IMG/VR virus record: IMGVR_UViG_2541047866_000002
Source of the DNA: a virus
Taxonomy: Duplodnaviria > Heunggongvirae > Uroviricota > Caudoviricetes
Length of the DNA: 11,159 bases
Reading direction: 5' to 3' (one strand)
Position numbers and translations under genes: made by a program. The notes under the pieces were generated by a model that was given only the letters and a program-made list of their open reading frames with translations, was not told where the DNA came from and searched no databases. The first letter of the stretch is position 1. Each line of letters opens with the position of its first letter. This document shows, piece by piece, positions 714 through 3,211 of this stretch.

Positions 714-827
714 GTTACCCTCCACGCAAACAACTCTTTTCGAATACAAAAGATAGCAAAGTGAGTATATCTAGTCAAAATTTTTTTGCATACACTTTGC
801 TATCAAATTGAATACCAAAGGTGTTAT
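714..827. promoter_or_regulatory. Divergent arc / mnt promoter-operator region with a perfect 12-bp inverted repeat
   Basis: gatagcaaagtg at 752-763 and its exact reverse complement cactttgctatc at 793-804, 29 bp apart. On the minus strand -35 TTGACT (plus 773-778), a 17-bp spacer and -10 TATCTT (plus 750-755) lie upstream of arc, with one repeat copy in the spacer and overlapping the -10. On the plus strand a TTGCAT -35-like hexamer (786-791) sits just 5' of the other copy; the plus-strand -10 is unclear. Confidence 0.55.
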
Positions 828-1076
828 ATGGCAAAGGGTGTGTCAATTTCTCCAACTACGGTAAGAATCCCTGAATCTTTACGCGAGGCTCTTGCTGTCA
901 GAGCATCAAAAAATGGTCGCTCTGTTAACTCCGAGATCGTCATGATTTTGCAAGCCGCGATTGATGAAGATAGGTCGCCAAAGTCAGTTGAGTCATTTGC
1001 TCAGCAAGAAGCTGATAAATTCAAAGAGGCGCTACTTGAGACGCTAAAGACCATGTATGCTAAGGATGAAAAATAA
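828..1076 (+). CDS. mnt: Mnt-like ribbon-helix-helix repressor (82 aa)
   Basis: ATG at 828. The product MAKGVSISPTTVRIPESLREALAVRASKNGRSVNSEIVMILQAA...KFKEALLETLKTMYAKDEK resembles P22 Mnt along its length (GRSMNSELLQIVQDAL ... KKMVFDTLKDLYKK). It is divergent from arc as in immI. The stop TAA at 1074-1076 overlaps the next ATG (TAATG). Confidence 0.8.
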   Translation: MAKGVSISPTTVRIPESLREALAVRASKNGRSVNSEIVMILQAAIDEDRSPKSVESFAQQEADKFKEALLETLKTMYAKDEK

Positions 1077-1612
1077 TGCTGCACACAATTCATTTCTTAT
1101 GCCCTGTTAACACTGCCACTGTTGGGCAACTTCAGAACCACTGTCTCACCGCATTATCTCAAGGCGCAACTGAATTAAATATCCATATATCAAGTCAGGG
1201 AGGGGAAACTGCTGCTGGCTTTACTGCGTATAACTTTCTTAAGTCACTCCCTGTTACCGTTAGAACTCACAACATAAGCAATGTTGAATCCATAGCTAAT
1301 ATCGTTTTCCTGGCTGGCTCAGAACGTTTCGCAAACCCATTATCAAGATTCCTGTTACATCCTCTATTATGGTGCTTTGCCTCCCCAGCCGCCGACCATG
1401 CCAGATTGAGAGAGTACGGGAAATGCCTCGATAACGATCTTGATCGCTTCGTTGAGACGTTCAATATCGACATCGGAACCCATATTAGGTGGGCATCCCT
1501 GATAGCAGACTCGACCATTTTGGATGCTAACAAGGCTCTTGAGCATGGCATAATTAATTCCATAAAAACTGCAAGGCTGGCATCCAATCAGGCAAACTGG
1601 TGGGTTGTTTGA
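1076..1612 (+). CDS. ClpP-fold (S14-like) serine peptidase, short stand-alone form (178 aa)
   Basis: Start overlaps the mnt stop (TAATG). ISSQGGETAAGFTAYNFL aligns by eye to ClpP INSPGGVITAGMSIYDTM; NVESIANIVFLAGSERFANPLSRFLLHPL to [32 protein letters not shown]; the C-terminal ILDANKALEHGIINSI to FLSAPEAVEYGLVDSI. Candidate Ser (ESIA), His (LLHP) and Asp (IADSTILD) residues are present. Family assignment is from memory, not a search. Confidence 0.6.
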   Translation: MLHTIHFLCPVNTATVGQLQNHCLTALSQGATELNIHISSQGGETAAGFTAYNFLKSLPVTVRTHNISNVESIANIVFLAGSERFANPLSRFLLHPLLWCFASPAADHARLREYGKCLDNDLDRFVETFNIDIGTHIRWASLIADSTILDANKALEHGIINSIKTARLASNQANWWVV

Positions 1613-1630
1613 TGGGTAAATCATGATTAC

Positions 1631-1662
1631 TCCTTATAAAAAACCCACCTGACGGTGGGTTT
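1631..1662. terminator. Stem-loop terminator between the convergent ClpP-like and YafO-like genes
   Basis: aaacccacc-tgac-ggtgggttt at 1641-1662 (9-bp perfect stem, 4-nt loop). On the minus strand it is followed by TTTTTATAAGGAG (plus 1631-1640), a canonical intrinsic terminator for the minus-strand cassette. On the plus strand the downstream T-tract is weak. Confidence 0.55.
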
Positions 1663-2110
1663 AGTCAAACATAGTGTTTCTAAAGTCTCTCGCATACCCT
1701 GCTAACACTCTCATTCTATTATGATTGTTAGCAGACATGTGAGCTACAGGATGAAAAAGAGCAATCAATGAATACCTGTTCTCATCAAAAAGATTTTGTG
1801 CATAAACGAGAGCGGTATTGGATGTTTTATGCCACTGCAACTTTTGCGGTGTGCTGATATCTGTGCCATTTTTTATTGGCTCAAATTTATTTTCACCAAT
1901 TGCTAAATGAAGGTGCATAAGGCCTGCATCTTCAATATCAGGAGGTCGATGATAAGAGGTGTCTCTGCCAAAATAGCTGGGCAACGTTCCCGTAGACTTG
2001 TAGATGATAAAATCATCTACAAGTGTTTGTTTTAAATCAGGAAACTCAACAAAAACCGGGGAGAAAAAATAGTCAAAACTATCCTGATTATATTCCACGG
2101 TTACTTGCAT
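1661..2110 (-). CDS. YafO-family toxin-like protein (149 aa)
   Basis: ATG at 2110-2108 with GAGGT 5 nt upstream, located inside the 3' end of the preceding gene. The product aligns by eye with E. coli YafO as I remember it: DFIIYKSTGTLPSYFGRD / DFISYKRDGVLPDTFGRD; HLHLAIGENKF / HIHLANENNPF; ALVYAQNLFDE...LIALFHPVAH / HLVYCQGAFDE...LIAILKPEPH; and a C-terminal N..M......A..FR pattern. Confidence 0.7.
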   Translation of the reverse strand: MQVTVEYNQDSFDYFFSPVFVEFPDLKQTLVDDFIIYKSTGTLPSYFGRDTSYHRPPDIEDAGLMHLHLAIGENKFEPIKNGTDISTPQKLQWHKTSNTALVYAQNLFDENRYSLIALFHPVAHMSANNHNRMRVLAGYARDFRNTMFD

Positions 2111-2118
2111 GTTTTACC

Positions 2119-2685
2119 TCAGTGGAAGTTACCAGAGTGAAACACACGAGTCCCGTGCTCAGCAAGCGCACGCAAACCAGCCATATCTACGGAACTATCA
2201 AAAACAACCGGAACACATGAGCGTTGTTTAATAAGACTATTCAGGTTGGTTACGGCAGATCTGGCATCAGCAACAACGATATAGATATCTCTTGCGATCT
2301 CTTTAAAATCAGCAGAAGCTTCTTTGAATACCGATTTCATTGCCCCTTCAAGTCCTCTCAATTGATGCTCTATCAATCGAGACTTTTCTGGTTCAATGAT
2401 AGACAACACATTGTCTACATTCTCATCGGTAGCGTTTGCAAGAACACGATAAGCGTATTTCAGCATTCGAGACAATTCTTTAATCGAAGACACCGCCTCA
2501 TGAAGCTCATCATTAGCCCGTTCACTGCTGAATGAGGATTGATGGTAAGCGTGCTGAACGTTATCAGTAACAACCACCTCACAACTGAACGCAGAAGCTT
2601 GCTGTAATAGCAAACCTATTGCGACTCCAGCTTTGGCAGCGTTCAAGCTAAACATTTCATCAATCCCATTAGTCTCATTGCTCAT
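2119..2685 (-). CDS. Hypothetical protein (188 aa), upstream partner of the YafO-like gene (antitoxin position)
   Basis: ATG at 2685-2683 preceded by AAGGAGG with a 5-nt spacer. Its stop TGA at 2121-2119 lies 8 nt before the YafO-like start. No motif I recognise (no obvious RHH/HTH). The longer ORF start at 2715 is rejected because it lacks an RBS. Confidence 0.6.
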   Translation of the reverse strand: MSNETNGIDEMFSLNAAKAGVAIGLLLQQASAFSCEVVVTDNVQHAYHQSSFSSERANDELHEAVSSIKELSRMLKYAYRVLANATDENVDNVLSIIEPEKSRLIEHQLRGLEGAMKSVFKEASADFKEIARDIYIVVADARSAVTNLNSLIKQRSCVPVVFDSSVDMAGLRALAEHGTRVFHSGNFH

Positions 2686-2860
2686 ACAAACCTCCTTCTT
2701 ATCGGAGATTATCAATAGCTATGCATCCATTGAATACACGCTATGCGCAATAAGTTTACGTCACGTGATATCATTATGCAACCACCGTTCTATCACCGAC
2801 TAACTTTACTCCCACTCCTATACATCATCTGGTATCCTGCGCAAAACTAAGGAGGTTGGT
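2686..2860. promoter_or_regulatory. Divergent intergenic region between the 188-aa gene and the membrane-protein gene, with candidate promoter and palindrome
   Basis: On the minus strand TTGCAT (plus 2776-2781), a 17-nt spacer and TAAACT form a plausible sigma70-like promoter for the cassette. The spacer contains the 8-bp palindrome TCACGTGA (2761-2768). Promoter for the plus-strand gene not confidently placed. Confidence 0.35.
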
Positions 2861-3211
2861 GTGAATGCTCAGTCTGTCATCATGGTTTTCCTTGGGCTGA
2901 TTGTCGCAAAACTATATCCAGACTGGTGGAAAGGGGCATTAGCTACTGTCGCCATCTATTTGCTTTTATCCATCGTTAAGCGATCACTCGCTGAGACCGT
3001 AAATCAAGCAAAACGTTTCTCATTTAAGAGTTTAATAAACTATGTTACTGGGCTTATTTTTTGCCTTTCAATTCTGATCGCTTCGGCTTTTTTGCCCGTA
3101 TCAATAGCTAATTTTTTTGGCGCACCATATGAGGTAGGTTATCTATTCTCTGTTTCCTGTCTTGCCATTGCTCTTCTTTACCTGTGGACGAGATCAAAGA
3201 ATAAAAATTAG
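2861..3211 (+). CDS. Small integral membrane protein with 4 predicted TM helices (116 aa), in the position and orientation of P22 sieA
   Basis: GTG at 2861 with GGAGG at 2851-2855 (5-nt spacer). Four hydrophobic stretches (VIMVFLGLIVAKLY, ALATVAIYLLLSIV, LIFCLSILIASAFLPVSIANFFG, YLFSVSCLAIALLYLW). Convergent with gene 16 and AT-rich. Confidence 0.6.
   Translation: MNAQSVIMVFLGLIVAKLYPDWWKGALATVAIYLLLSIVKRSLAETVNQAKRFSFKSLINYVTGLIFCLSILIASAFLPVSIANFFGAPYEVGYLFSVSCLAIALLYLWTRSKNKN

Follow-up and report, generated by a model that had tools for sequence, protein, structure and literature searches.

The gene directly behind the mnt-like repressor gene of a P22-like (Lederbergvirus-type) prophage of Escherichia coli encodes a 178-amino-acid protein that is predicted, from its sequence and from a structural model, to be a stand-alone ClpP-fold subunit with a complete head-plus-handle and without the N-terminal gate. 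Both genes lie in the immunity-I region of an 11,159-nucleotide stretch of viral DNA (IMG/VR record IMGVR_UViG_2541047866_000002), the whole of which is referred to below as the window. The ClpP-like gene is accessory cargo, it retains the Ser–His pair of the ClpP active site, and it is under purifying selection. The explanation that best accounts for these features, which is plausible though a little short of probable, is that the gene is a moron (optional, independently acquired cargo) for a shortened ClpP paralogue that alters proteolysis in the lysogen via ClpP-type rings. The main features of this part of the window are as follows.

750–827: arc–mnt intergenic control region, 28% GC, presumed to contain the divergent promoters Pant and Pmnt together with their operators
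828–1076, plus strand: mnt-like repressor gene, 82 amino acids
1062–1078, plus strand: junction of the two genes, with the Shine–Dalgarno sequence AAGGA (1062–1066), the mnt stop codon TAA (1074–1076) and the next ATG (1076–1078)
1076–1612, plus strand: ClpP-like gene, 178 amino acids
1641–1662: bidirectional hairpin terminator with a 9-bp stem (AAACCCACC/GGTGGGTTT) and the loop TGAC

Fold and active site of the ClpP-like protein

The initial annotation had aligned the 178-residue protein by eye with the catalytic core of ClpP, and this assignment is borne out by profile and structure searches. The Pfam family CLP_protease (PF00574) matches residues 24–165 at 44.4 bits (E = 2.2e-11), above the gathering cutoff of 20.2 bits. 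The AlphaFold2 model has a predicted local distance difference test (pLDDT) score of 92.8, and its best Foldseek match is PDB 9UXT, the ClpP1 protein of Pseudomonas plecoglossicida (PpClpP1), with a template-modelling (TM) score of 0.93 and a root-mean-square deviation of 1.7 Å; the same structure is matched over residues 3–175 in a phmmer search (E = 1.6e-35). Structures of ClpP from E. coli, S. aureus and other species are matched at TM 0.82–0.84, with the handle helix included, and Listeria ClpP1/2 and M. tuberculosis ClpP1 are also among the fold matches. The corresponding search of BFVD returned only distant viral ClpP-like proteins (at most 25% identity). The protein falls outside the canonical ATP-dependent ClpP families, scoring 19–40 bits with the NCBIfam ClpP equivalogs, the cutoffs of which are 228–361 bits.

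In an alignment for which the E. coli ClpP reference sequence was confirmed against 1TYF, some 23 residues at the start of mature E. coli ClpP, which form the N-terminal axial loops, have no counterpart in the phage protein; the initial annotation had stated that the N-terminal region is lacking. Ser72 (codon 1289–1291) aligns with E. coli Ser97 and His95 (codon 1358–1360) with His122, and these two residues and the GG motif are invariant across 30 homologues with 30–80% identity. Thus, of the candidate Ser, His and Asp positions initially proposed, the Ser and the His hold, whereas a conserved catalytic Asp is ruled out by two alignments: the column of ClpP Asp171 contains Ser146 in the phage protein and Ser, Ala, Thr or Gly in its relatives, and Asp145 and Asp150, which flank Ser146, vary among homologues. 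The Asp of the Ser–His–Asp triad that characterizes the peptidase S14 fold is therefore missing.

The surface that corresponds to the hydrophobic ClpX/acyldepsipeptide (ADEP) pocket of E. coli ClpP is altered. Tyr60, Tyr62, Phe82, Ile90, Met92, Phe112 and Leu114, which we take to be the residues of the ClpX/ClpA docking pocket, are aligned with Asn35, His37, Ser57, His65, Ile67, Phe85 and Asn87, respectively, such that five of the seven hydrophobic residues are exchanged for polar ones. At the C-terminus, the motif NWWV(x)C (residues 171–178; window 1585–1609) is conserved in the phage clade and not in canonical ClpP, and residues 173–177 of this region are modelled as a β strand.

Cargo behind a mosaic mnt gene

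The identification of the upstream gene as mnt-like is upheld. The 82-amino-acid product is an Arc/Mnt-type ribbon–helix–helix protein (Pfam Arc, E = 9.5e-11) with a C-terminal coiled-coil tail, and its BLASTP alignment with P22 Mnt (36% identity; E = 7e-14) spans 74 of the 82 residues and includes the tail. As in P22, the gene is divergent from arc–ant and the gene order is the same. P22 Mnt is the maintenance repressor. A perfect 12-nucleotide inverted repeat in the gap between arc and mnt (GATAGCAAAGTG, 752–763; CACTTTGCTATC, 793–804), with 29 nucleotides between its arms, provides candidate operator sites for the divergent promoters, and a promoter-like site lies on the minus strand at 778–750. 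This layout agrees with the annotated Pant/Pmnt/Oarc/Omnt arrangement of P22. A third, weaker copy of the repeat, at 828–842, overlaps the start of mnt.

The mnt stop codon and the start codon of the ClpP-like gene share one base (position 1076; TAATG), as initially reported from the coordinates. This overlap is found in 41 of the 45 viral contigs that bear a copy of the ClpP-like gene with at least 80% identity, and is replaced by a 29-nucleotide spacer in relatives from Providencia. Stop/start overlaps are common in operons and in themselves unremarkable. The co-translation proposed for the two genes is plausible, but it is not conserved outside E. coli. Downstream, the hairpin at 1641–1662 closes the mnt/ClpP-like unit. 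It was recognized from folding of the segment 1613–1675, which in full has a folding energy of about −17 to −19 kcal/mol and also forms a second small hairpin, and from the 100% identity of window 1621–1662 to a rho-independent terminator annotated in phage Emek; a simple consensus terminator scan made no call at this position.

The same hairpin marks the right edge (1634–1662) of a sharply bounded block of conserved DNA, the left edge of which is at about 984–1036, within the 3′ end of mnt. The last 14–30 codons of mnt consequently fall inside the block and travel with the ClpP-like gene, and at least six alleles of the N-terminal DNA-binding half of Mnt precede the same C-terminal tail and block. 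In one of these alleles (L211), which aligns with P22 Mnt at 85% identity across 81 residues, the N-terminal half is like that of P22 Mnt. The N-terminal half, which determines immunity specificity, and the C-terminal tail therefore recombine independently, a mosaicism seen at window 984–1076 and in loci L055–L101, L142/L143 and L150–L229.

The unit behind mnt differs among phages. In the annotated genome of P22 it consists of mnt, orf59a and a terminator, in agreement with the earlier statement that P22 mnt is not followed by a protease gene, and in Emek it consists of mnt, orf77 and orf69, followed by the terminator sequence equal to window 1621–1662. The slot was surveyed in 80 viral contigs with a P22-type mnt, for which P22 Mnt alone was the query because an alignment of several alleles was too diverse. 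The contents of the slot 3′ of mnt were as follows.

No open reading frame of at least 40 amino acids: 47 of 80 contigs
orf59a: 11 of 80
Gene for 239 amino acids, PHROG 19868: 7 of 80
Gene for 89 amino acids, 8-nucleotide overlap with mnt, PHROG 4231: 6 of 80
Gene for 199 amino acids, PHROG 18235: 4 of 80
Gene for a 125-amino-acid signal-peptide protein, 11-nucleotide overlap, PHROG 32609: 2 of 80
ClpP-like gene: 3 of 80

At least six alternative cargo genes (PHROGs 19868, 18235, 4231 and 32609, orf59a and the ClpP-like gene) thus fill the slot, and the Mnt C-terminal tail has a distinct version for each of them. Co-inheritance of the tail therefore reflects a recombination joint inside mnt rather than a special partnership between Mnt and the protease. 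With so many alternative occupants, the slot is a useful place to seek functions that are expressed by prophages.

The cassette as a whole is also mobile. In all 45 contigs mentioned above, ant and arc are directed leftward and mnt and the ClpP-like gene rightward. The ant–arc–mnt–ClpP-like cassette adjoins gene 16 in P22-like genomes, and lies between tail genes K and L in lambdoid siphophages such as PhiR12_1 (loci L002, L056, L063, L064, L066, L075 and L081–L085). Its presence in both P22-like podophages and siphophages indicates that the immunity-I module moves as a unit. P22-like phages of Providencia show the same pattern at 66% protein identity, with two mnt alleles and a shared Mnt tail.

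Temperate phages of other types have homologues with 52–75% identity, and these lie at three further sites with neither mnt nor arc nor ant: in lambdoid prophages of Klebsiella, E. coli and Leclercia they separate the Rz/lysis genes from the terminase genes, in prophages of Pantoea and Erwinia the tape-measure gene from Mu-type (myovirus) tail genes, and in a prophage of Chromobacterium the tail-fibre genes from the lysis genes. Together with the alternative genes of the slot, these homologues support the initial view of the ClpP-like gene as accessory cargo of the immunity-I region. In every surveyed locus with identifiable neighbours, the gene runs opposite to the late genes around it and lies outside the head modules, and a canonical clpP gene was found beside none of the loci fetched. 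In one E. coli lambdoid lineage (L124–L131 and L135), a co-oriented gene for 182 amino acids lies about 80 nucleotides upstream of the ClpP-like gene; its only match is a sub-threshold one to Abi_2 (abortive infection; E = 0.04). More distant relatives (38–48% identity) are chromosomal, for example in Massilia. In a library-wide search, 524 cluster representatives matched at E ≤ 1e-10, eight of them at E ≤ 1e-30, and as most are 180–190 amino acids long, they delineate a broad clade of short ClpP-like proteins.

Window 780–1650 is 100% identical to the chromosomes of APEC O1 (avian pathogenic E. coli, APEC), S88, ATCC 11775 and many strains of sequence type 95 (ST95), and 98–99% identical to phage phiv205-1. 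Among 5426 complete E. coli genomes, 146 (about 2.7%) have the ClpP-like segment, including the ST95 strains APEC O1 and S88 of the extraintestinal pathogenic (ExPEC) and APEC groups; in GenBank, only six phage records contain it. The ratio of nonsynonymous to synonymous substitution rates (dN/dS) is 0.07–0.09 wherever dS can be estimated, which indicates purifying selection.

Possible roles of the ClpP-like subunit

The 2026 publication on PpClpP1 treats it as a chromosomal drug target and makes no phage connection (PMC12900304). This N-terminally truncated protein, with a Ser73–His96–Pro arrangement, assembles as a homotetradecamer whose pore measures 42.7 Å. Its activity is 13-fold below that of ClpP2 and is abolished by S73A or H96A. 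PpClpP1 cannot bind ClpX, but the heterotetradecamer that it forms with canonical ClpP2 is more active and binds ClpX via the ClpP2 ring (PMC12900304).

By analogy, the phage gene could act as follows. The transcription unit would comprise Pmnt, mnt, the ClpP-like gene and the terminator, and as a member of this unit the ClpP-like protein should be made with Mnt in the lysogen; by comparison with Pmnt of P22, it is presumably expressed from the prophage. The 178-residue subunit would assemble, like PpClpP1, as ClpP-type heptameric rings. These rings might combine with each other to give a homotetradecamer with a wide pore and a weak peptidase activity that needs no ATPase, or with one ring of host ClpP to give a mixed tetradecamer in which ClpX or ClpA is still bound through the host ring. 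Mixing with the single ClpP of the host is, by the same analogy, the most likely mode of ring assembly. Either assembly would change the output of Clp proteolysis in the lysogen, and candidate payoffs are stabilized lysogeny, interference with superinfecting phages and host fitness. Since close homologues occur without mnt, arc and ant, a general target is more probable than an immunity-I protein.

A more ambitious form of this idea is rather unlikely: that a gateless ClpP paralogue is carried as a 'Trojan subunit' by temperate phages of Enterobacterales and expressed from the prophage (in the window, under the promoter of the immunity repressor), and that hybrid rings with the only ClpP of the host reprogram ClpXP and ClpAP, thereby stabilizing lysogeny or blocking superinfection. 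Many phage and host regulators are under the control of ClpXP and ClpAP; lambda O, Mu repressor, antitoxins and RpoS are established examples. A ClpP subunit supplied by a prophage would let a phage retune this machinery directly, and the 'Trojan subunit', if true, would represent a new class of prophage-encoded modulators of host proteases. Because the host has a single ClpP, the system is simple and testable.

Several observations weigh against a role of the gene in ClpP-type rings of the lysogen. With only 38–40% identity to PpClpP1, hetero-oligomerization with E. coli ClpP is an extrapolation, and the Asp/Arg ring–ring sensor of canonical ClpP is not kept, a difference that might impede mixing with the rings of the host. 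With PHROG 94 (head maturation protease) the score is 76 bits, above those with the cellular ClpP profiles, and a phage prohead protease may be the ancestor of the gene. On its plus-strand side, the terminator has a weak T tract. Lastly, the copy in locus L102 is split by an IS5-type transposase insertion (window-equivalent position about 1260–1263) and that in L099 is truncated to 139 amino acids, which indicates that the gene is dispensable for the prophage.

The main rival explanation, which is possible though doubtful, is a stand-alone, gateless homo-oligomeric peptidase that degrades unfolded or disordered polypeptides without an ATPase or host ClpP, and whose targets could include proteins of incoming phages (superinfection exclusion or defence). 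The wide-pore homotetradecamer of PpClpP1 is intrinsically active (PMC12900304), and an independent peptidase would be consistent with the missing N-terminal gate, the polar docking pocket and the orientation of the gene, which is always antisense to late genes. In addition, the gene occupies prophage slots in which exclusion genes are found elsewhere, and sieA of P22 is in the same region (PMC10461980). The low intrinsic activity of PpClpP1 argues against this explanation (PMC12900304), as does the lack of a match to a defence model: PADLOC-DB 2.0 (2023 library) gave no match for the window protein and three homologues at E values up to 0.1, and no defence match for the genes neighbouring the ClpP-like gene.

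Another explanation, of a kind raised as one possibility in the initial annotation, is a component of the immunity-I circuit: a protease that turns over Ant, Arc or Mnt and thereby tunes prophage induction. The gene does share a transcription unit with mnt, is always linked to arc and ant in the immunity-I cassettes of E. coli and Providencia, is co-inherited with the C-terminal tail of Mnt, and belongs to a cassette that shifts as a unit between P22-like and lambdoid phages. This role is nevertheless improbable. Every other cargo gene likewise has a co-inherited Mnt tail, the ClpP-like gene is missing behind most mnt genes (it follows 3 of the 80 P22-type mnt genes surveyed), and ant has been destroyed by an IS3-family insertion in the window prophage, where the ClpP-like gene is intact. 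The homologues with 52–75% identity that have no mnt, arc or ant nearby also weaken the proposed tie of the protease to Mnt or Ant.

An addiction pair of the toxin–antitoxin kind, with the Mnt-like ribbon–helix–helix protein as antitoxin and the overlapping protease as toxin, is very improbable. The gene order and 1-base overlap resemble those of type II toxin–antitoxin operons, and the ribbon–helix–helix protein also matches the FitA-like antitoxin family (E = 2e-8). However, this protein is a full-length Mnt homologue, divergent from arc–ant as in P22, and its alleles swap freely before an unchanged protease gene. The ClpP-like gene is widespread without a ribbon–helix–helix partner and mnt occurs without the ClpP-like gene, so that co-occurrence is not obligate; the ClpP-like protein matches no toxin family, and its assignment to a type II pair was rejected.

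Least credible of all is that a ClpP-type prohead (head maturation) protease has been displaced or survives as a relic without a present function: although the best PHROG is number 94, 'head maturation protease' (E = 7e-21), the NCBIfam family Clp_rel_HeadMat (NF045542) gives a match, and one GenBank phage annotates the gene in this way, the match of 49.3 bits is far under the NCBIfam cutoff of 120 bits, none of the surveyed loci with identifiable neighbours has the gene in a head module and all have it antisense to late genes, purifying selection is strong, and the closest relative is a cellular ClpP paralogue. P22-type heads, moreover, assemble without a protease. Score and genomic context thus rule out a prohead protease, in agreement with the initial annotation.

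Neighbouring genes and comparison with known systems

The other features of the region are as follows.

1–92: end of an IS3-family insertion sequence (IS) element, inserted in ant with the junction at 92/93
Down to 93, minus strand: ant fragment
Between the ant fragment and arc: open reading frame of 57 amino acids
561–749, minus strand: arc
1661–2110, minus strand: YafO-family toxin gene (Pfam E = 3e-22)
2119–2715, minus strand: gene for 198 amino acids, PHROG 8416, with no assigned function
2861–3211, plus strand: gene for a 116-amino-acid predicted membrane protein with no family match
3′ of 3211, minus strand: homologues of P22 ejection/tail genes 16, 20, 7, 14 and onward

The sequence of the IS3-family end (the first 92 bases) occurs at thousands of places across E. 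coli genomes; Ant is truncated by this insertion in the window prophage, where mnt, arc and the ClpP-like gene are all intact. The YafO toxin gene is preceded by the 198-amino-acid PHROG 8416 gene in place of a YafN-type antitoxin gene, and this gene is possibly a new kind of partner for the toxin. The two genes form a cassette that apparently inserted separately, with boundaries at about 1662 and about 2824; most relatives do not have it and run from about 1662 straight to about 2824. The gene for the 116-residue membrane protein adjoins gene 16, at the position of the exclusion gene sieA in P22.

The immunity-I region of P22-like phages has been called the 'ant moron' by Casjens and colleagues (PMC2629481). 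The 'ant moron' is located at the same site, from gene 16 to the tailspike gene, and contains mnt, arc and ant (Villafane et al., 2008; PMC2629481). Drawings of the versions in the APEC O1 and UTI89 prophages, showing six genes and an IS3 element, already appear in that study, which remarks on rapid gene flux; it names and discusses no Clp-like gene, and 'Clp' is absent from its text. The ClpP-like gene is likewise unmentioned in the papers on SieA (PMC10461980) and epsilon34, and literature searches on phage or prophage ClpP-like genes, on P22-like phages and Clp protease, and on CUS-3 and ClpP gave nothing relevant. No paper was found on a pairing of Mnt with a ClpP-like protein, of which the initial annotation knew no description, or on a phage-borne truncated ClpP. 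The truncated type of ClpP has been known since 2026 from PpClpP1, and the region was drawn in 2008 without naming the gene, whereas the phage context and the linkage to mnt appear to be undescribed.

Canonical E. coli ClpP (S14; PDB 1TYF/1YG6) and the phage protein have about 20% identity and TM 0.82, and the Ser, the His and the GG oxyanion motif align. Residues 1–23 of the canonical protein, which contain the gate and the ClpX pore-2 contact, are missing in the phage protein, and Asp171 is exchanged for Ser. P. aeruginosa ClpP2, Listeria ClpP1 and M. tuberculosis ClpP1P2 are similar in concept, in that a low-activity paralogue gains function in a heterotetradecamer (discussed in PMC12900304, and established knowledge). 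In these species, the paralogue and its partner are chromosomal, whereas the phage paralogue would be supplied by a prophage, and the identity is only about 20–24%.

The ClpP-related head maturation proteases (NF045542; PHROG 94) have a ClpP-fold Ser protease domain of about 165 amino acids, also without axial loops, to which the phage protein shows weak to moderate profile similarity. The phage gene differs from them in its location outside the head module, its orientation antisense to late genes and the absence of a scaffold or capsid fusion.

PpClpP1 (PDB 9UXT; PMC12900304) is closest. Its length is 183 amino acids, compared with 178 for the phage protein, and neither has the N-terminal axial loops. 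Besides the closeness in sequence and fold and the N-terminal truncation, the two proteins share the Ser–His pair and a non-acidic third residue (Pro in PpClpP1, Ser146 in the phage protein), which places the phage protein in the PpClpP1 type. The differences are the C-terminal NWWV(x)C tail, conserved in the phage clade, and the genetic setting: PpClpP1 is treated as a chromosomal paralogue, and a PpClpP1-like gene sits just upstream of tig, whereas the phage gene is cargo in a host with a single canonical ClpP. As the only characterized relative, PpClpP1 is a more specific mechanistic lead than a 'repressor-controlled protease'.

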